Virus genome (UHGV): UHGV-0090851
Length of the DNA stretch: 37,840 nt
Reading direction: 5' to 3' (one strand)
From: a virus
Shown here piece by piece: positions 5,908 to 13,278 of this stretch. The notes under the pieces are model-generated. The model searched no databases. It was not told the origin of the DNA and saw nothing but the letters and a program-made list of their open reading frames with translations. Position 1 is the first letter of the stretch; each line of letters begins with the position of its first letter. The translations under genes and the position numbers were made by a program.

Positions 5908-6986
5908 CAGAACGGGTCCTCCTGTACTCTGGCTTTTTTCTTTTTCCGCACGCCGGGGGCTTCGGGTTCAGGCAGATAAGCATCAGGTGGGCCGACACGG
6001 ATTTCCGTCAGGGTGCCGTTCTGGTCCTGAGTAAACGTGACTTCCGAGACAAGCAGTTCGGTATTGTCAAAACCACAGACCGGATCGAAGACAATCACCC
6101 GCTGGTTGGGCTGCCACAGCGTACCGTTACCCTGTCGCCAGCCCTGCACCACATAGGTGGTTTCATCCGTCCGCGCCGCCCGTTGTCGGGCTTCAAAGTC
6201 AGCACGCGCAATACAGCCTGCCCCCGTAGCCTGCCCTGTCTGCCTGATATACATCGGACGGTAACGGGCAATAAATGCGTCCTCTGTGCGGGCCCGCAGC
6301 GCGGTGGTGGTGGCCTCACCGAAATCATCGTCGTTTCCGGCACGCTGCCCCGCCACCTGGTAAACAGAAAACCGCTCCCGGATACTCTTCTCCGTATCGC
6401 AGGAAAGGATGTTTTCCCCGAGTACCAGCGCAGTATGTGCCCGCGTTGAGCCAATACCGCCAATCACCAGCCTGCCGTGCGGGTCGTCGTAAGCCAGTGC
6501 CTGCTGCTGACCGAGTATTTTGTTGATCACCTCAATCACCGTTTCGCCGTGATCAGGCTGGACATCAGGAATAACACCCGACGGCGCACTGTTGTTCACC
6601 ACCTCAATGCCGAAAGGCGCAGCAAGCGCCTGCGCAATCTGTACCAGCGATCGTCCGTTAAACTGTGTCGGTTCGGCTGCACAGTCAATCAGGTCAGCGG
6701 TCAGACTGCGTCCGGCAATACCGGTGCTGACCGAACGGGCATCGTAACGAACGGGCGTCGCCTCCACCCAGCCGGTGATCACCAGCTCATCACCAATCAG
6801 CACCTCCACTTTTGAACCGTTTTTAATGCGCGGCTGAAGCGTGGTAATACCCTCATCTCCCGGCCACTGGCGGGTGATCTCCACACTGAAATCCCGCGCC
6901 AGCCGTTCAATACCGGCACCGATGCGCACCGATGTCCAGCCATTCCACTCCCGGCCATTTACCCGTAGCGTGACATTGTCGTTCAT
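5907..6986 (-). CDS. Baseplate hub (phage late control D-like)
   Basis: 359 aa; gpD-like; follows the DNA circulation gene as in Mu-type tails. Confidence 0.7.
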   Translation of the reverse strand: MNDNVTLRVNGREWNGWTSVRIGAGIERLARDFSVEITRQWPGDEGITTLQPRIKNGSKVEVLIGDELVITGWVEATPVRYDARSVSTGIAGRSLTADLIDCAAEPTQFNGRSLVQIAQALAAPFGIEVVNNSAPSGVIPDVQPDHGETVIEVINKILGQQQALAYDDPHGRLVIGGIGSTRAHTALVLGENILSCDTEKSIRERFSVYQVAGQRAGNDDDFGEATTTALRARTEDAFIARYRPMYIRQTGQATGAGCIARADFEARQRAARTDETTYVVQGWRQGNGTLWQPNQRVIVFDPVCGFDNTELLVSEVTFTQDQNGTLTEIRVGPPDAYLPEPEAPGVRKKKKARVQEDPF

Positions 6987-8356
6987 TGCACTGGCACCTT
7001 CAGAGGGATCACCGGCACAAAGCCGGGATGCGTAATGGCATTACGCCGGATAATGTCCGCGTCACGCGCCGCGTTATCAAACCAGGTCGCCGCCAGCACC
7101 AGCGCGGGTAAAACCTCATCCGGTGTGCGCTGAATGATCCGTGCAGACTGTTCAAGGCGCGTGTTGATATCCGCATTCAGATCTGCTTTCACCCGGCGCA
7201 GCGCCAGAAACAGCGCATCACTGGTTGTACGGGACAACTCCTTATCAATTGCCGTATTCAGTGTGTCGCGAATGTCAGTCAGTTCTTCCCACGTCGGCAG
7301 GTCAACCGTGTTTTTCACCGCCGGTGCATTGTTCAGTGCCGGATGCGTGACGGAAGGCCAGCCAGTGCTCTGCGCGGGTGTTGTTGCCTGCCCCACTGCG
7401 GAATTCTGCATCACCGCGGAAGTTGTTGGCGCAGGCAATCGGGTGACGGCATACGCCGCTTCGCTGATTGCGGTCGTACGAAGGGTGCTGGCAACCACGT
7501 TACGCTGCTGCGTCGCCGTGGCGGTGGTTTTACTGTCCGTTTTCCAGACGCCGCGCGGTTGCAGATCGCTGCCGAGGCTGACACCGGAAAGCGTTTTGAT
7601 CATGGTGACCAGGTCGCTGGCGTTACCATAAAGGCGTTTCCCGGTACGCCACATTTTCTGCACCTGCTCAACGAAATTTTTGCCTGACGATGGCGGCGGC
7701 AGAAGTACCGAGATATCCCCCTGCAACAGCCTGGCGGCATCCGATACGGCAGAATCCACCACTTTCATCGCATCAGAAACATACCCCAGCATTATGCTGG
7801 CATTACCGATAACGTCGTTCTGCACGAAATCCGCCACACCATCGATACTGAAACCACTGAAGCTGTCACTGATGCAGTCATCCAGTGCAGAACAGGATGA
7901 CATCAGCGTCTGCGCCGTCGCCGCACCTGAAGTGGGGTAAGAGAGCTCTCCTGCTTCGACAAACTTCAGGTCAAAACGGACAATACGCCCTTCACTCTTC
8001 GATGTGCTGACCCGAACTTCCCCGTCAACACAGACTTTCAGCTCACCGTAAGTCGGATGGACAAGCGTGCCGGGACCGGGTTTATTCAGCGCTTCAATCA
8101 GGCGATCGCGCTGGTCAAAGCAGTCATCTCCCACCACATAAGCTGTGATGGACGGGCGGAAAGTGACTTTTCCCAGATCTTCGGTATAGGGCTTGTCGCG
8201 GTTCGGGTATTCATGTGTTTCCACACGACGACCGGTTCCCGCACTTTCTTCTTCAACCTTAAACGGCACACCTCGAAATGATGCTTCAAGTAGCTTTTCA
8301 CGCCAGCCACTTCGAGAATCAGAGGATAGGTACGAAGAAATATGAGAAAAATCCAT
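6983..8356 (-). CDS. Tail protein with DNA-circulation N-terminal domain (Mu N-like)
   Basis: 457 aa; lies between tape measure and hub; ATG verified at 8354-8356. Confidence 0.75.
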   Translation of the reverse strand: MDFSHISSYLSSDSRSGWREKLLEASFRGVPFKVEEESAGTGRRVETHEYPNRDKPYTEDLGKVTFRPSITAYVVGDDCFDQRDRLIEALNKPGPGTLVHPTYGELKVCVDGEVRVSTSKSEGRIVRFDLKFVEAGELSYPTSGAATAQTLMSSCSALDDCISDSFSGFSIDGVADFVQNDVIGNASIMLGYVSDAMKVVDSAVSDAARLLQGDISVLLPPPSSGKNFVEQVQKMWRTGKRLYGNASDLVTMIKTLSGVSLGSDLQPRGVWKTDSKTTATATQQRNVVASTLRTTAISEAAYAVTRLPAPTTSAVMQNSAVGQATTPAQSTGWPSVTHPALNNAPAVKNTVDLPTWEELTDIRDTLNTAIDKELSRTTSDALFLALRRVKADLNADINTRLEQSARIIQRTPDEVLPALVLAATWFDNAARDADIIRRNAITHPGFVPVIPLKVPVQ

Positions 8357-8412: not shown

Positions 8413-8901
8413 TTAACGATCATAATCAACATTATGAGTATCTATTCTACATGATGAATAAGTAATTCCGCTTTCACCACTAATATTTACGCCAGCCTTT
8501 ACCTTCCCTGTTTTCGTAACATCAACAAAGAATTGCCCTCTTGGCATTTTAAATGCAAAAGAGAAACCAATAATTTCCGAGTCAAAGTTATTTTCATCCT
8601 CACTAATTGGTACAATAAAAGTCAATGGTGCAGATTGTGAGTTATTTTTAAAATCAAAAGCACCAATGCTTTTATTAAACTCGTAGGATGCTTTTTTTAT
8701 TAAAAGAGTTCCACTTGCCGACTTTGCTGGGCATATTACAGACAGTCTATTTATTCCCTCTACATCTAGATCTATATTCTTATCCGCTGAAGTTTTAACG
8801 TTATCTATAAAGTATGTAGCAAGCTGCTTTTCCGTTACTGGCTTCGCAAAGGAGTTTAATGGCAGTCCTACAGCCAACAACAATATAAACATTTTCTTCA
8901 T
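8413..8901 (-). CDS. Secreted/periplasmic protein of unknown function (AT-rich moron in tail module)
   Basis: Start taken at ATG 8899-8901 (SD GGAGAG), giving MKKMFILLLAVGLPLNSFA-KP, a signal-peptidase-I-type signal peptide. Region is clearly AT-rich relative to GC-rich flanking tail genes. Own downstream hairpin. Confidence 0.6.
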   Translation of the reverse strand: MKKMFILLLAVGLPLNSFAKPVTEKQLATYFIDNVKTSADKNIDLDVEGINRLSVICPAKSASGTLLIKKASYEFNKSIGAFDFKNNSQSAPLTFIVPISEDENNFDSEIIGFSFAFKMPRGQFFVDVTKTGKVKAGVNISGESGITYSSCRIDTHNVDYDR

Positions 8902-8965
8902 ATTCTCTCCTACATTCAGCACAAACTTTACCACTCAATAACCCTACTTGATTAAAGTAGTTATA

Positions 8966-10867
8966 TTATCGTCTGAATGGAGAATACCCCACATCGTGCG
9001 TGATTTTCATCAGGGGATCGGCTTTGCCCGGTACATCAATTATCTTCATACCTGGCGGAGCATTCTCGAACGTGACTTTCAGCTCGCTGTGCTGTGTCAT
9101 GGAAGAAGATGGATTCAACAGCGGAACATTGGGTTTGTACTGACTCAGGCTGGCCTGATACTGCTCGTACTCTTTACGATCAAAAAAAGGCGTCCAGTCT
9201 GAAGCCAGAAACAGCCCTTTATTATCCAGCCAGTTAACCGTATCTTCAGGAATAACACTTTCCAGAGTATCTTTAACCGGCTCATACATCAGGGTTCCCA
9301 GAAAACCATATACCCCGGCCTTCCCGATAAAGCCGCGGCCTTTCCCCATCAATCCCGTTTCTGCCGATACCTTCCCCAGCGTACGCATCTCTCTGGTCAC
9401 TGCGGTAATGGATTTGGTAACGTCAGCAACCCATTTGGTTGCCATAAACAGGGCAATCGCTTTCAGAACAGTTTCCCATCCCCCCATCGCCTGCGCCGTT
9501 TCATCCACCACGTGCCAGACTTTTTTTATGACAGGACCTACGGTTTCCCAGTTATCAATAATGAGGTAAGCGCCACCAACCAGAAGAGCAATCAACCCCT
9601 TAGCAGGCGTCATATTCATCACACCGCCGAGAACTTTCATAATTCTGGACAAAGAGCCTGCAGCGGCTCCCACCGTCAGTAAGGCCAGACCGATTTTAGC
9701 AATGGTCTTAACGAGCTCCGGGTTTTCACGAACAAACGTTCTCACTTCCTCAAGGAGCGGTTTTACCGCTTCAAGACCATCATTAACCTCAGGAAGAAAC
9801 GTTTCCCCCAGCGTGGAAGAAATGGCATCAAGTTGATTTTGCAGAAGTAAAAGCTGGTTTTCCGTCGTCGCTGCCCTCGAAGCATATTCCTTCTGCATCG
9901 AACTGCCATACTGCTGGGAATCCGCAACCCGCCTGAAGTTGGTACGCAACAAATCAAGGTTAGTCAGCAGAGGTGCTATCGCGCCCAGAGACTCTTTCCC
10001 GAACAGGGCATTCAGCACAGCTGCCTGTTTTTCTTTAGGCACTTTAGCCATCGCATCCAGTACAGACAGCATGGTGCCCCGGGCATCTTTCTGCATATCA
10101 GCAGCTAATTTCTTCGGATTGATCCGCAGAAAACGCAATGCCTGTTTCTGCGATTTTGTCGCAGAATTTCCCGCGGTCAGGGAAAGCATGAAGTTCTTGA
10201 TCCCTGTGGCGGCAATTTCTGACTCCACGCCCATCCCGGCAATGGTTGCCCCCATTGCCGCGATTTCGCCGGAAGCCACACCTGCAACACCACCTAAAGG
10301 ACCAATACGCGTAACAATATCGGAGATTTTCTTCGCGTTCGCCGGGCCGGTATTACCAAGGTAGTTGATTTTGTCAGCCAGCCCGGCCACTTCATCCTGC
10401 GTCATATTAAACGCAGTACGCCACTGGGCCATCATCTGCCCGGACTCTTCAGCCGTGGTATCAAAGGCCACGCCCATCTTCACCGCATCAGTGGCAAACT
10501 GCATCAGTTCATCACGTGCAATCCCGGCCTGACCGCCAGCCGCCACAATTTCCGCGATCCCGTCTGCAGACATGGGAAGCTCAGTAGACAAAGCGCGTAC
10601 CTGCTCCGTCATGGCCTTAAACGCATCCGGCGTATCCAGACCGTCCACCACTTTGCGGACATCAGCCATCTTCGATTCAAGGGTGATGGCTGATTTTACA
10701 GGGAGTGCCAGTGCCCCCATTATTGCAGTACCCGCCCCGGCAGCGCCCAGAGCAAGGCTGGAGACTTCTTTCTGAAATCCCTTAAGCTGACGCTGCATAC
10801 CTTTAAGCGGGCCGGACAGCCTGTCAACAGCGGTGATGATGGCTTTCAGCTGAAAATTATCAGCCAT
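8966..10867 (-). CDS. Tail tape measure protein
   Basis: 633 aa, Ala/Gly-rich, with predicted helical and hydrophobic segments; located after the chaperone pair; ATG verified at 10865-10867. Confidence 0.85.
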   Translation of the reverse strand: MADNFQLKAIITAVDRLSGPLKGMQRQLKGFQKEVSSLALGAAGAGTAIMGALALPVKSAITLESKMADVRKVVDGLDTPDAFKAMTEQVRALSTELPMSADGIAEIVAAGGQAGIARDELMQFATDAVKMGVAFDTTAEESGQMMAQWRTAFNMTQDEVAGLADKINYLGNTGPANAKKISDIVTRIGPLGGVAGVASGEIAAMGATIAGMGVESEIAATGIKNFMLSLTAGNSATKSQKQALRFLRINPKKLAADMQKDARGTMLSVLDAMAKVPKEKQAAVLNALFGKESLGAIAPLLTNLDLLRTNFRRVADSQQYGSSMQKEYASRAATTENQLLLLQNQLDAISSTLGETFLPEVNDGLEAVKPLLEEVRTFVRENPELVKTIAKIGLALLTVGAAAGSLSRIMKVLGGVMNMTPAKGLIALLVGGAYLIIDNWETVGPVIKKVWHVVDETAQAMGGWETVLKAIALFMATKWVADVTKSITAVTREMRTLGKVSAETGLMGKGRGFIGKAGVYGFLGTLMYEPVKDTLESVIPEDTVNWLDNKGLFLASDWTPFFDRKEYEQYQASLSQYKPNVPLLNPSSSMTQHSELKVTFENAPPGMKIIDVPGKADPLMKITHDVGYSPFRR

Positions 10868-11275
10868 GCTTCATCTCCTCATTTATACGGACAGCCTCTG
10901 CCTCCAGATCAGCAAAGTGGGAAATAGCCGTCCGGCGAAGTTCAAGGGGGTTTAATTTCCAGAACCACGCGACATTGTAGAATCGCTTCCGGAGCTCTCT
11001 TCCGTCTCCAAGCCGGTAAAAAAACGCATTACAATCATGCCTGCCTTGAAAATATCCAGCTTCGTCATCTGCGCTGCAGACGAGCGCGGGATCCCGGCCA
11101 GAAGCGGGATATATTTCAGCGCCACCTGACTGTCCATTTTCATACCACCATCAGGCGAAACAGAGAAAGGGAACCCCAGCGCCTCAATCTCGTCATACGT
11201 AGGCTCACGTATTTCCAGCACATGCAGTGTTTCTTTGTGGGCGATGATCGGTTTTTTAAGTACAAGCTCAATCAC
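10860..11275 (-). CDS. Tail assembly chaperone, putative -1 frameshift-extended product
   Basis: After slippage at T_TTT_TTT (plus-strand 11018-11024) the -1 frame stays open for 52 codons and stops at a TGA overlapping the tape-measure start codon. Confidence 0.45.
10952..11275 (-). CDS. Tail assembly chaperone (zero-frame product)
   Basis: 107 aa between tube and tape measure; GTG start overlapping the tube stop (GTGA); contains slippery heptamer T_TTT_TTT. Confidence 0.6.
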   Translation of the reverse strand: MIELVLKKPIIAHKETLHVLEIREPTYDEIEALGFPFSVSPDGGMKMDSQVALKYIPLLAGIPRSSAAQMTKLDIFKAGMIVMRFFTGLETEESSGSDSTMSRGSGN

Positions 11276-11628
11276 TGGTAATCCCCTTCTTCACCGTGGA
11301 ACTCAAGATCAACCGTGCCTTCTTCGGCATTATGGTTCGCTTCTCCGTGCAGCCAGGCGGACGACAATACATAGACCTGACCGTTCGCCAGCTCGGCAGT
11401 GATGGTCATCTCATCAGACGAGGTGATTTTGCTCACCGGAAAATTCTTCGGCACCTTGAAGGTCCCTTTGACATAAGGCGCACGGTGAGTTTCCTTGCGG
11501 TCCACTGAACCGTCCAGACCGATGATGTCATCGTTAACCGTTTTGTTCATGGGCACCTCAATGCCGCCGGTCAGCGATAGCTGCTGACCGTCAATTTTGA
11601 AATAACAGGTTCCCCCGATACGGGCCAT
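11272..11628 (-). CDS. Tail tube protein
   Basis: 118 aa directly downstream of the sheath gene; ATG verified. Confidence 0.75.
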   Translation of the reverse strand: MARIGGTCYFKIDGQQLSLTGGIEVPMNKTVNDDIIGLDGSVDRKETHRAPYVKGTFKVPKNFPVSKITSSDEMTITAELANGQVYVLSSAWLHGEANHNAEEGTVDLEFHGEEGDYQ

Positions 11629-13124
11629 TATGCAGACTCCTCTGAATACTGAAGACGGAACTGGTTAACCACGGCAAAGACACGCAACTGGTTAACATAG
11701 TCAGGCGGGAACAGCGTGTTCAGGCGGTTCGGATCGCTGGCATCACGCTCCACAATCAGGTACTGCTTGAACAGTTCGTAGTTTTCCACGATCCCCGCAC
11801 GCTCGAGCTGACGGTAGGTTGCCAGCAGTTCCCCTTTGATCACCGCCGGGGTGACAATCGCCTGACCGGGACCAAAGCGGGTACCGTCGCTGGCAAGCTT
11901 GTGACGCCCGTACTTACTGGTAATGACGGATTTCAGTTTGCGCAGTACATACGCACTGGTATGCAGCGTCTCGCTGTCGAGGTAGCTGTTATCCGCAACC
12001 CCGTAAGCGTTTTTCCTGTACGTGGTGACATCACGCTGAATGCGCAGTACCCCGCTTTCGACATACGCCGTTGCCACGCCATGAGACAGCAGGGTCTGTT
12101 GTTCGGTCATCGTGAACCGTTTCCCCTTCGGCGCAGGCAGCATACCCACCAGCTCACCGGTCTGCGTGGAACGTGCCGGATCGTTGCGGATAAACACCGC
12201 TGCGCGGGCGGTACGGCTTGCCGCCAGCTCGTCGGCAGGCGTCTGGGTCTCTTTTTCGTACCCCGCCAGGGTAATGTGCTGCTGGTTAAACTGGTCACCT
12301 GCGGTCACCAGTTCTGACAGCGTGCCGATCTTTGCCGTATACACATGACCATACAGCTGACGCGCATAGCTCCAGCGACCGCTGGTATCGTTCATCTCGG
12401 TCACCAGCGTGTTAACGGAGGCTGTGTCGTTGAACGGCAGGCCGATATAATCAAACGGCTCATCCGCCATTGCAGCCACCGCGCCGGTGAGAACAGGAGC
12501 GCCCGTTCCGGCGGTACCCGTCGCCACGGCAATCTGTACGCCCGCTGGCAGCACTTCGCCCCCACCAAAGCCGTAGTAATTGAGGCTGACAGGAATTTCA
12601 TTCCCGCAAAGCCCCTTATGACGCGCGGTCAGTGTGACCACGCCTGCCGAAGATGAAGCCGTAAACGGCAGGGTCGGAACGGCATTGATGGCATCCTGGA
12701 TACTGCTGGCAATCGTCGCAACGTTATCGCCGTTGGTCACCGGTGCCTGCACGCGGGTACGTCCCACATAAACATTCACCGTGCCGGTTTCGGTTGCCGC
12801 GCCGGTCACCGTCAGCGTAACCGTTGCCGCCGCGCCCGTGGATTCAGGAACGGCAATCACATACAGCTCGCCAAACGGGTCGGTCTGGCGATAAGCCTCG
12901 ACCATACGCGCCAGCTGACTTCCCGCACCACAAATCTGGCGTGCATAGTCTGCCGACGGCATCAGTACCAGACTGTTGGCAACAATCTCCGCACCGTTAT
13001 TGGCATGACCAATCAGCAGCGATGCTCCGCTGTCCTGTGCAGTATTCGCCGCCTGATTATCCATTTCCGCATAAAACAGCGGAACCAGCGTATTCGACGG
13101 AATGGTGTTAAAGCTTATCGTCAT
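11628..13124 (-). CDS. Contractile tail sheath protein
   Basis: 498 aa; sheath family features; sheath then tube order. Confidence 0.88.
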   Translation of the reverse strand: MTISFNTIPSNTLVPLFYAEMDNQAANTAQDSGASLLIGHANNGAEIVANSLVLMPSADYARQICGAGSQLARMVEAYRQTDPFGELYVIAVPESTGAAATVTLTVTGAATETGTVNVYVGRTRVQAPVTNGDNVATIASSIQDAINAVPTLPFTASSSAGVVTLTARHKGLCGNEIPVSLNYYGFGGGEVLPAGVQIAVATGTAGTGAPVLTGAVAAMADEPFDYIGLPFNDTASVNTLVTEMNDTSGRWSYARQLYGHVYTAKIGTLSELVTAGDQFNQQHITLAGYEKETQTPADELAASRTARAAVFIRNDPARSTQTGELVGMLPAPKGKRFTMTEQQTLLSHGVATAYVESGVLRIQRDVTTYRKNAYGVADNSYLDSETLHTSAYVLRKLKSVITSKYGRHKLASDGTRFGPGQAIVTPAVIKGELLATYRQLERAGIVENYELFKQYLIVERDASDPNRLNTLFPPDYVNQLRVFAVVNQFRLQYSEESA

Positions 13125-13278
13125 CGGTGTTCACCTTTTTATTCACGCGCCGGATATCACCCGCTACTTCACGGCGCAGCCAGTAGTTGTTCTCGTCAAC
13201 ATTTCGCCCTTCGGCGGGCAAAAGGTCGCCGCGGGCAGGGTCAGGAACTGACCGCCCTTTAACAGGTTTGACAAACAT
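13108..13278 (-). CDS. Small hypothetical protein upstream of and overlapping the sheath gene start
   Basis: 56 aa ORF missed by the >=60 aa track: ATG at 13276-13278 with SD GAGGA 7 nt upstream; MFVKPVKGRSVPDPARGDLL...; fills an otherwise non-coding 160-bp gap. Confidence 0.35.
   Translation of the reverse strand: MFVKPVKGRSVPDPARGDLLPAEGRNVDENNYWLRREVAGDIRRVNKKVNTDDDKL

Follow-up and report, generated by a model that had tools for sequence, protein, structure and literature searches.

The gene that encodes the tail assembly chaperone of the prophage described here very probably yields, besides its short product, a second and longer protein by a -1 ribosomal slip on seven T's. The prophage, i.e., the whole stretch of 37,840 nt that was analysed (in the following the window), is SfIV-like and carries a Mu-type tail. 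Its genes of interest are situated on the minus strand in the order sheath, tube, chaperone, and tape measure. The features referred to below are as follows:

11272..11628, minus strand: tail tube gene, 118 aa (Pfam PF10618 Tail_tube, E=3e-33)
10952..11275, minus strand: 0-frame ORF of the tail assembly chaperone, 107 aa (ORF list, PF10109, phrog_166, PGAP)
11018..11024, minus strand: slippery heptamer T_TTT_TTT (100/100 related loci, ST64B, YeP1, 17 lineages)
10860..11018, minus strand: -1 frame extension, 52 sense codons (YRLGDG...EEMKHG) and TGA (pN/pS; phrog_32181, E=4.6e-6)
10955..11017, minus strand: dual-coding overlap of 21 codons (pN/pS 0.78 in the 0 frame vs 0.52 in the -1 frame)
10868..10951, minus strand: apparent intergenic gap of 84 nt, coding in the -1 frame (codon-position test)
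10875..10880, minus strand: GAGGAG, putative Shine-Dalgarno sequence of the tape-measure gene, as read from the sequence
8966..10867, minus strand: tape-measure protein gene, 633 aa (Pfam PF10145, E=2e-42)

The chaperone gene and its slippery heptamer

The TGA stop of the tube gene and the GTG start of the chaperone gene overlap in the sequence GTGA at 11275..11272. From this GTG at 11275, the chaperone ORF extends to a TAA stop at 10954..10952 and encodes the short product of 107 aa (11.7 kDa, pI 5.3); in the PGAP annotation, this CDS carries the name 'phage tail assembly protein'. The chaperone stop is separated from the ATG of the tape-measure gene (10867) by exactly 84 nt (10951..10868), the length already given in the initial annotation. 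A GAGGAG situated 7 nt upstream of this ATG, within the Glu-Glu codons of the -1 extension, is likely the Shine-Dalgarno sequence of the tape-measure gene, the product of which is the presumed client of the chaperone. At the same position, most divergent loci possess GAGGAG or GAGGAA, and two possess GGGGAG or GGGGAA.

Residues 5-86 of the chaperone match PF10109 Phage_TAC_7 (named 'Phage tail assembly chaperone proteins, E, or 41 or 14') with 32.1 bits over model positions 3-78 of 79, the cutoff, i.e., the curated gathering threshold, being 25. For phrog_166, the E-value amounts to 2e-25 for the chaperone of the window and to 4e-7 for P2 gpE. By these profile matches, the protein belongs to the P2 gpE / Mu gp41 family of tail assembly chaperones. 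No match was obtained in NCBIfam for the short or the long product, and no meaningful match in a sequence search against solved structures. Structure prediction for the long product, based on a 19-sequence alignment headed by the homologue P0001, reached a mean pLDDT of 44.8 and a pTM of 0.29, values too low for the model to be of use.

Concerning the slip site, a canonical heptamer T_TTT_TTT had been reported in the chaperone gene at a distance of 25 codons from the stop. The heptamer is indeed present at 11024..11018 and in the correct 0-frame register, CG[T TTT TTT] ACC (i.e., X_XXY_YYZ), where it comprises the last base of codon 84 together with Phe85 and Phe86 of the 107-residue chaperone; the distance, however, has to be corrected to the 21 sense codons that follow the heptamer before the TAA is reached. 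In all 100 of 100 related loci, originating from at least eight genera, T_TTT_TTT is found in register at the same position, as is the case in ST64B and in the Yersinia phage YeP1. Across 17 lineages, the amino acid preceding the Phe pair varies (G, N, R or S), but the third base of its codon is always T, and both Phe codons of the slip site are TTT in all 17, whereas elsewhere in the same genes TTC is the commoner codon (29 vs 21). At the nucleotide level, conservation of the heptamer exceeds what the encoded amino acids demand. Elsewhere on the minus strand of the window, T7 tracts occur at, for example, 9188, 20861, 30839, and 34694. In the sister clades, the homologous site reads T_TTT_TTC (SfV clade, 77/80 loci) or T_TTT_TTG (P2 clade, 80/80 loci), both with runs of only six T's. 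Scans of IMG/VR for diverse profiles of the P2 E' or SfV type returned only copies with 99-100% identity, in which the slip site is conserved, and which added no depth to the profile comparison.

That the split of the gene results from mutation or from an error in sequencing the homopolymer, with one continuous ORF of 137-142 aa as the true gene and the present copy as a pseudogene, is very improbable. Single-ORF versions do exist, namely P0001, with a T5 tract, and a Shigella flexneri variant (P0003-P0007), but the T7 tract and the split occur together across genera (100/100 loci), in 212 E. coli records (at least 80% query coverage, at least 90% identity), and also in the isolated phage SfIV (PMC3851460); furthermore, the 0-frame tail keeps its length and composition. 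The single-ORF form of S. flexneri has to be regarded as a derived state, since its T7 tract is intact and the frame is made continuous by another change, the insertion of 1 nt (GG→GGG) at a distance of 28 nt downstream. SfIV, which carries exactly the split arrangement of the window, was isolated as a serotype-converting phage (PMC3851460), such that splitting of the gene is not lethal. Several database proteins that span the entire long product (P0008-P0010, P0015, P0016, P0021, and P0083) change frame at least twice and have the appearance of assemblies with many indels; they were left out as evidence. A frameshift reported in the literature, considered as a possible misreading of the programmed site, maps to sb21/sb22 and not to the sb15 chaperone.

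The -1 frame extension and the apparent intergenic gap

After both Phe codons, the -1 frame continues with TAC (11018..11016) and remains open through GGC up to a TGA stop at 10862..10860; these are the 52 sense codons across the gap that had been claimed initially. The final TGA had been described as overlapping the start of the tape-measure gene. The two genes do overlap, as the long chaperone ORF shares 8 nt with the tape-measure ORF, but the TGA lies over codons 2-3 (ATGGCTGA) and not over the ATG itself. The long product, join(11275..11018, 11018..10860), is predicted to comprise 138 aa (15.9 kDa, pI 8.9) and to read ...MIVMRFFYRLGDGRE across the slip junction. Residues 1-86 are common to the short and the long product.

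In the window, the open -1 frame of 96 codons contains no ATG, GTG or TTG until 4 codons before its stop, and in 6 of 17 divergent loci it contains no start codon anywhere. On the 5' side of the heptamer, this frame is open for 7-69 codons in the 17 divergent loci and is not conserved. With no start codon usable in the -1 frame, independent initiation is impossible; slippage at the heptamer is the only way into the extension. A separate small gene in the 84-nt gap, translated from a start of its own, is hardly conceivable for this reason. Gene callers sometimes call such ORFs on their own, and the families phrog_32181 (SfV type) and phrog_12783 (Mu type), both listed under 'unknown function', are such extension ORFs, but conservation of the peptide begins right at the heptamer (FFY..G.G..LR.R), i.e., still within the chaperone ORF.

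When the downstream 155 nt were subjected to mononucleotide shuffling, the -1 frame was open in 6.3% of the trials, and openness alone is therefore weak evidence. It is the comparison among related loci, and not the pattern in a single sequence, that lifts the case above chance. Among 30 unique sequences, pN/pS of the gap is 0.33 in the -1 frame vs 1.37 and 1.69 in the other two frames, diversity at the -1-frame codon positions 1, 2, and 3 is 0.19, 0.13, and 0.44, and stop codons are found in 0/30 sequences in the -1 frame vs 30/30 in each of the other two. The 84-nt gap evolves as coding sequence, and in the -1 frame only. All 100 of 100 related loci possess a -1 ORF of 52-59 codons, in which the motif N.A[HW]FW[KR].NPLEL...S.F.E.E.EA.RI is kept, and the extension peptide is conserved from E. 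coli and Shigella through Pantoea, Erwinia, Lonsdalea, Mangrovibacter, and Yersinia phages, that of the Yersinia phage YeP1 being 43% identical to the one of the window. The initial annotation had made its reading depend on conservation of the extension in related phages; the check revealed a conserved peptide with coding-type substitutions in the -1 frame only. That the -1 frame is open by coincidence, the gap being a non-coding spacer or a regulatory sequence of the tape-measure gene, has a negligible probability. The proportion of open shuffles would be compatible with it, and the gap does include the Shine-Dalgarno sequence mentioned above, but the substitution pattern and the distribution of stop codons effectively refute this explanation; in addition, the heptamer is conserved at synonymous positions, and a pS of 0.54 argues against an artefact of non-independent copies of the loci.

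In the dual-coding overlap, translation of the 0 frame gives an acidic, Ser/Thr-rich tail of the short form (TGLETEESSGSDSTMSRGSGN, pI 4.05), the length (21 codons in most loci) and composition of which are both kept, whereas that of the -1 frame gives the basic beginning of the extension, which in the long form has a pI of 9.4.

The overlap of 21 codons, which follows a pure U7 without stimulator, is unusually long.

The recoding site might be more than a plain copy of that in P2, although we consider this doubtful. If it were so, the ratio of long to short product would be set jointly by slippage of RNA polymerase and of the ribosome on the same U7 tract, and the two C-termini would represent functionally antagonistic modules rather than 'tail absent' vs 'tail present'. 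The widespread prophage variant of S. flexneri, which possesses only a protein like the long form owing to the 1-nt insertion, might then serve as a natural experiment on the importance of the ratio.

Slippage by the ribosome or by RNA polymerase

In the proposed mechanism, both products would be initiated at one start codon. Most ribosomes would stay in the 0 frame and produce the protein of 107 aa (11.7 kDa), whereas a minority would slip back by one base while two tRNA-Phe are positioned on the UUU UUU of U_UUU_UUU; in the -1 frame, both tRNAs would again find UUU and pair with it perfectly. The slipped ribosomes would translate 52 more codons across the gap and terminate 8 nt inside the tape-measure gene, resulting in the protein of 138 aa (15.9 kDa). 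By analogy to lambda G/GT and P2 E/E+E', the shared N-terminal domain would coat the tape-measure protein, the rare long form would recruit the tube protein through its -1 domain, and neither product would end up in the virion. The frameshift-chaperone arrangement of tailed phages, as which the initial annotation had interpreted the locus, is supported by protein family, gene position, heptamer, and conservation of the -1 frame: As is characteristic for this class, the gene is situated between the tube and the tape-measure genes (flanks matching PF10618 and PF10145), and a -1 ORF without start, evolving in the manner of coding sequence, reaches the tape measure.

U_UUU_UUU is a -1 frameshift motif with measured activity in E. 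coli, amounting to 0.33% in an unstimulated reporter and to 10.2% in combination with the IS3 pseudoknot, and it falls in the efficient H_HHU_UUY class (PMC4066793). As the value for the bare U7 is about tenfold below the GT:G ratio of lambda (about 1:30), slippage would have to be enhanced by the context, or else a lower ratio would be enough. Concerning a stimulatory structure past 11018, for which a search had been proposed in the initial annotation, no conserved hairpin or pseudoknot was found. Folding of 131 nt as a single sequence gave z=0.00, 16 homologues folded individually exhibited no common hairpin, RNAalifold on 17 divergent sequences predicted 0 pairs, and an Rfam scan produced no match. 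Equally, no SD-like stimulator upstream is conserved in the alignments, and the 12 nt on the 5' side of the heptamer are not conserved. With the presence of a stimulator defined as a conserved hairpin or pseudoknot 5-9 nt past the heptamer, or as an SD-like element upstream, the site does not belong to the RNA-stimulated -1 frameshift cassettes of the IS3/IS911 or dnaX type. P2 is likewise reported without a downstream structure (PMC3091744). A local GCGAY...RUCGC hairpin situated around 30 nt downstream occurs in some sequences only, is lost where Val becomes Thr, and is too distant.

The same long protein could also arise mainly via slippage of RNA polymerase on T7/A7, alone or together with ribosomal slippage, such that standard translation of mRNAs with U8 (+1 nt) or U5 (-2 nt) would enter the extension frame; we regard this as unlikely. 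In each of the three frames, U7 occurs less often than expected in E. coli genes, which Sharma et al. partly ascribe to transcriptional slippage (PMC4066793), the whole clade retains a pure homopolymer of seven identical bases, and in the genomic T5 variant P0001 (...MRFYRLG...) a -2 change at the tract leads to a fused ORF. However, documented transcriptional slippage in bacteria uses runs of around 9 A/T, compared to which T7 is short (PMC5009743), the sister clades of SfV and P2 possess T6 runs and yet canonical ribosomal heptamers in register, and both the P2 record and PMC3091744 describe P2 E+E' as the product of a translational -1 frameshift. Slippage of the polymerase furthermore requires no codon register, yet the third base of the preceding codon is held at T (X_XXY_YYZ), an argument that is weak for T7 itself because a run of seven is by definition in phase for some frame. 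From sequence alone, ribosomal and transcriptional slippage are inseparable. We infer the ribosome, and not RNA polymerase, to be the slipping agent, and likewise the product ratio and the division of labour among the domains.

Annotation of the predicted long chaperone and comparison with known systems

The long chaperone of 138 aa is unannotated in the records inspected, i.e., those of SfIV, SfV, vB_EcoM-720R4, ST64B, YeP1, and PGAP-annotated E. coli; with this protein missing from the records, the 84-nt region that appears as 'intergenic' is really coding. The families phrog_32181 and phrog_12783 can be assigned a role as frameshift extensions of tail chaperones. In engineering phages of the SfIV, ST64B or phiP27 type, or tailocin-like particles, both the T7 tract and the -1 frame must be preserved, and caution is required as the Shine-Dalgarno sequence of the tape-measure gene sits inside the -1 frame, too. 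For enterobacteria, a well-supported natural U_UUU_UUU site without stimulation is added, and together with the sister clades, which possess U_UUU_UUC and U_UUU_UUG at the homologous position, it provides a set for studying effects of the last base and of the context on efficiency. The arrangement itself is known from P2 and lambda, and the mechanism class is unchanged by this site.

In P2, which also has a contractile tail, the E/E+E' frameshift (Christie et al. 2002, J Bacteriol 184:6522, as cited in PMC3091744) is annotated as a joined CDS (NC_001895), and the small ORF is situated directly upstream of the tape-measure gene, as in the window. The N-terminal domains of both belong to PF10109 and phrog_166, the P2 extension equally lacks a start of its own, and extension lengths including the two slip codons are similar (54 codons in the window, 59 in P2, and 55 in SfV). 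In all three, base +8 of the tape-measure gene is the last base of the -1 stop. Despite this similarity, the tail module of the window is Mu-like (sheath L, tube M, DNA-circulation N) and not P2-like, and the last base of the heptamer differs (T_TTT_TTT in the window, T_TTT_TTG in P2, and T_TTT_TTC in SfV). After the heptamer, 21 zero-frame codons follow in the window vs 6 in P2, such that the short product here possesses an acidic tail of its own of 21 aa. Comparison of both products to chaperone families, as the initial annotation had suggested, succeeded for the N-terminal domain (PF10109, phrog_166), whereas for the extension it failed with regard to PF06528 Phage_P2_GpE, to which the extension exhibits no match even at E<=10, P2 E' scoring 78.6 bits; because of this, the extension is grouped with phrog_32181 (SfV type), which it does match. 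Similarity to P2 E' is weak and collinear, with E=0.012 over 124 columns when the whole long product was compared by hhalign; an HMM of the extension only, aligned to the PF06528 core, reached 4.9 bits against P2 E' (E=0.0012, one comparison).

SfV, with its orf13 and the equivalents in SfI and SfII, belongs to the same phage group as the window, and its flanking sheath and tube genes are around 97% identical. Its chaperone, homologous to that of the window at 43% identity, has T_TTT_TTC at the aligned position, and the extensions are homologous as well, since both match phrog_32181 and both end with ...HG* on CAT GGC TGA over the start of the tape-measure gene. In contrast to the flanking genes, the chaperone and tape-measure genes of SfV constitute a different allele cassette: nucleotide similarity to the window ends at 11247, 28 nt inside the chaperone gene, and just 3 zero-frame codons follow the heptamer.

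Concerning the tail module as a whole, Mu is closest to the window, with homologues of Mu L, M, gp42, and N, and the Pfam family of the chaperone includes gp41 (Mup41) in its name; the profile comparison between Mu gp41 and the family of the window was not significant. A gap of 144 nt precedes the tape-measure gene of Mu and is crossed by an open alternative frame. However, gp41 contains no in-frame X_XXY_YYZ heptamer, and its extension uses the other of the two alternative frames, which Xu et al. (as cited in PMC2628397) describe as a -2 shift.

Phage lambda (gpG/gpGT) differs by its non-contractile tail, by its heptamer G_GGA_AAG (Lys/Gly tRNAs), and by the lack of detectable sequence similarity to the protein of the window, for which Pfam gave PF10109 only. 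The gene order is nevertheless the same, i.e., tail tube or major tail gene, chaperone, -1 extension, and tape measure. According to the account in PMC5009743, which refers to Levin et al. 1993 and to Xu, Hendrix & Duda 2004, 2013, and 2014, the N-terminus shared by both lambda products binds the tape measure, the rare long form possesses an extra domain, a product ratio of around 30:1 was measured, and no strong RNA stimulator is involved. It is from gpG/gpGT of lambda that the mechanism proposed for the window is borrowed.

Tail module and chaperone gene

The window (37.8 kb) is an SfIV-like temperate myovirus; its region 8900-13200 exhibits 98.6% identity to Shigella phage SfIV and 98.3% to Escherichia phage vB_EcoM-720R4. 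The genes from the sheath to the DNA-circulation protein constitute a Mu-type contractile tail module:

Features of the tail module
13124..11628, minus: tail sheath (Pfam Phage_sheath domains)
11628..11272, minus: tail tube (PF10618)
11275..10952, minus: 107-aa ORF, the chaperone (ORF list and Pfam)
10951..10868, minus: gap of 84 nt between chaperone stop and tape measure
10867..8966, minus: tape-measure protein (PF10145)
8413..8934, minus: low-GC ORF of 173 aa between tape-measure and DNA-circulation genes
8356..6983, minus: Mu N-like DNA-circulation protein (PF07157)

Read directly on the minus strand, the chaperone gene starts with a GTG at 11275 that overlaps the tube stop as GTGA (11272..11275). 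The slippery heptamer proposed in the initial annotation is indeed present at 11024..11018, in the register CG[T TTT TTT] ACC, i.e., as a canonical X_XXY_YYZ (T_TTT_TTT) in the 0 frame, and is followed by 21 codons, not the 25 claimed, before TAA (10954..10952). Past the two Phe codons, the −1 frame runs exactly as annotated over 52 sense codons (YRLGDGRELRKRFYNVAWFWKLNPLELRRTAISHFADLEAEAVRINEEMKHG) through the 84-nt gap to a TGA (10862..10860), which overlaps tape-measure codons 2-3 (ATGGCTGA) and not, as had been claimed, the start codon, the ATG itself being spared. The predicted products are a short one of 107 aa (11.7 kDa, pI 5.3) and a long one of 138 aa (15.9 kDa, pI 8.9). Since 6.3% of shuffles yield a −1 frame open over this length, its openness is unremarkable alone, and the argument has to come from comparisons between related loci.

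The likely tape-measure Shine-Dalgarno GAGGAG (10875..10880, minus) falls on the Glu-Glu codons of the extension, such that the gene is bracketed by translational coupling signals, the GTGA overlap upstream and this Shine-Dalgarno inside the extension; the latter duty probably adds to the strong conservation of the extension C-terminus (...RINEE). The 0-frame tail past the slip site (10955..11017, minus; TGLETEESSGSDSTMSRGSGN) has a pI of 4.05; in most relatives (A1, the alignment of related chaperone loci) it likewise spans 21 codons and is acidic and rich in Ser/Thr, whereas it comprises just 3-8 codons in SfV, P2, YeP1, and one Leclercia locus. It is therefore an optional extra module of the short product.

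Concerning the neighbouring genes, about 97% nucleotide similarity to SfV, SfI, SfII, and SKA5 across sheath and tube ends at window position ~11247 (minus strand), i.e., 28 nt into the chaperone gene. Chaperone and tape-measure gene are exchanged together as a single diverged cassette (less than 50% identity; PMC3851460), which fits a chaperone co-evolving with its tape-measure client. The ORF at 8413..8934, with a signal-peptide-like N-terminus (MKKMFILLLAVGLPLNSFA) and no Pfam match, sits in an island of 34.5% GC between genes of about 50-58% GC; because it is present in vB_EcoM-720R4 and absent from this junction in SfIV, it resembles a moron insertion (accessory gene) within the tail operon.

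Conservation of the slip site and the −1 frame

By scanning one genome per species and IMG/VR, 100 related loci were gathered; the genomic set (Shigella, E. coli, Pantoea, Erwinia, Mixta, Buttiauxella, Leclercia, Mangrovibacter, Lonsdalea) exhibits 50-73% protein identity. A lack of conservation of the extension in related phages had been named beforehand as what would refute the frameshift, and the proposal passed this test: in all 100 loci T_TTT_TTT occupies the same register, and the −1 frame behind it stays open for 52-59 codons and encodes a conserved peptide. A tblastn search with the extension also finds phiP27, ST64B, 118970_sal3, and the Yersinia phages YeP1-3 (43% identity); the arrangement in ST64B and YeP1, which were inspected, is the same as in the window.

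In 30 unique gap-free sequences, diversity downstream of the 0-frame stop is 0.19, 0.13, and 0.44 at −1-frame codon positions 1, 2, and 3, and pN/pS is 0.33 in the −1 frame versus 1.37 and 1.69 in the other frames. Stops occur in 0/30 sequences in the −1 frame and in 30/30 in each of the other two. Where the two frames overlap (21 codons), constraint acts on both, and more strongly on the −1 frame (0.52) than on the 0 frame (0.78). A −1 frame open by chance is effectively excluded, as is a pseudogene or sequencing error. The same holds for a separate small gene in the gap: the extension cannot have a start of its own, ATG, GTG, and TTG being absent from the −1 frame of the window until 4 codons before the stop and wholly absent from the extension frame in 6 of 17 divergent loci. 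Upstream of the heptamer, the −1 frame is open for a variable 7-69 codons and lacks any conserved peptide.

Selection acts on the nucleotides of the heptamer itself. Across 17 lineages both of its Phe codons are always TTT, whereas elsewhere in the same genes the ratio TTC:TTT is 29:21; the preceding codon is GGT, AAT, CGT, or AGT, such that the amino acid varies and the third base is always T. The computed probabilities overstate independence because the lineages are related; the direction is unambiguous.

Mechanism, stimulators, and fused variants

Tandem slippage on U_UUU_UUU is the best explanation of the locus as judged from sequence: two tRNA-Phe would slip in tandem, giving a minor 138-aa product that would have residues 1-86 in common with the major 107-aa product. 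By analogy with the division of roles in lambda G/GT (summarised in PMC5009743), the N-domain may sit on the tape measure and the extension may recruit the tube protein, both products presumably leaving the finished tail. The one serious rival, transcriptional slippage on the T7 tract via U8 or U5 transcripts, was raised for U7 by Sharma et al. (PMC4066793); however, most documented cases involve runs of about 9 (PMC5009743), and sister clades manage with T6 heptamers. We consider it improbable here. The window contains eight further T7 runs (minus 9188, 20861, 30839, 34694; plus 8692, 9521, 16668, 29185); that at 9188 is an in-frame T_TTT_TTT within the tape-measure gene, where the −1 frame closes after 2 codons.

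A downstream stimulatory structure, for which a search had been proposed, was found neither by folding (131-nt region no better than shuffles, z=0.00; no hairpin common to the individual folds of 16 homologues) nor by RNAalifold (0 predicted pairs) or an Rfam scan (no match), and the 12 nt upstream of the heptamer are not conserved. In P2 and its Burkholderia relatives, a downstream structure was likewise not found (PMC3091744). In an E. coli reporter, −1 frameshifting amounts to 0.33% on bare UUUUUUU and 0.12% on UUUUUUC, and with the IS3 pseudoknot these values rise to 10.2% and 7.6%, respectively (PMC4066793, Suppl. Table S3); H_HHU_UUY motifs rank among the efficient ones in E. coli (PMC4066793).

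Frame-fused variants exist in the database. A Shigella flexneri prophage variant (loci L107:1501-1929 and L108; proteins P0003-P0007; 754 indexed blocks of the collection) retains T7; 28 nt past the heptamer, one inserted nucleotide (GG to GGG) shifts the 0 frame into the extension frame, yielding a single 142-aa ORF with an 8-nt overlap with the tape-measure gene. Under standard decoding, a long-form-like protein would be its sole product; the variant, probably a decayed prophage, amounts to a natural 'long-only' mutant. The near-identical protein P0001 (137 aa; 9 member sequences, 5 contigs) reads ...MRF-YRLGDG... with the frames fused, which requires a T5 tract (2-nt deletion); either the homopolymer has truly mutated or the assembly is at fault. 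Proteins P0008-10, P0015, P0021, and P0083, with repeated frame switches, look like indel-laden assemblies.

Family assignment and comparison with P2, SfV, and Mu

The proposed comparison with chaperone families supports the assignment: the 107-aa protein matches PF10109 ("Phage tail assembly chaperone proteins, E, or 41 or 14") at 32.1 bits (curated cutoff 25) and phrog_166 (E=2e-25), which P2 gpE matches too (4e-7). PGAP labels the CDS "phage tail assembly protein"; in the SfIV paper the gene is a hypothetical protein and a frameshift is unmentioned (PMC3851460). With the Pfam E′ model PF06528, P2 E′ reaches 78.6 bits and the window extension gives no match. A profile built from 12 long products can be aligned with P2 E+E′ over the full length, with coinciding slip sites and NPLEL over PPSEL, but at no better than E=0.012; an HMM of the extension alone finds the PF06528 core of P2 E′ with 4.9 bits (E=0.0012, single comparison). 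We assign the N-domain to PF10109 and count the arrangement among the P2 E/E+E′ class; the extension is kept out of PF06528 because of the missing model match and the weak profile scores, its distant homology to the P2 E′ domain being plausible but unproven. The predicted structure of the long product (pLDDT 44.8) is too low in confidence to use, and a sequence search of solved structures found no relative. The window and SfV extensions have phrog_32181 in common (4.6e-6 and 3e-41), and the Mu alternative-frame extension matches phrog_12783 (5e-30); both families ("unknown function") are tail-chaperone frameshift extensions called as free-standing small ORFs.

Chaperone frameshifting is a textbook phenomenon (Levin 1993; Christie 2002; Xu 2004). 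Points that appear new are limited to the SfIV/ST64B/phiP27/YeP clade: its use of U_UUU_UUU, its longer dual-coding overlap, and the absence of frameshift annotation in all records inspected. Window, SfV, and P2, the reference annotated with E and a joined E+E′ CDS, were compared with an identical script.

Slip site and reading frames in the window, P2, and SfV
Heptamer: window T_TTT_TTT; P2 T_TTT_TTG; SfV T_TTT_TTC
0-frame codons remaining past the heptamer: window 21; P2 6; SfV 3
−1 codons including the two slip codons: window 54; P2 59; SfV 55
Last base of the −1 stop, relative to the tape measure: window +8; P2 +8; SfV +8

Mu gp41 differs from these in that an in-frame heptamer is absent and the open alternative frame is the other one, in agreement with the −2 shift of Mu that a passage of PMC2628397 attributes to Xu et al.
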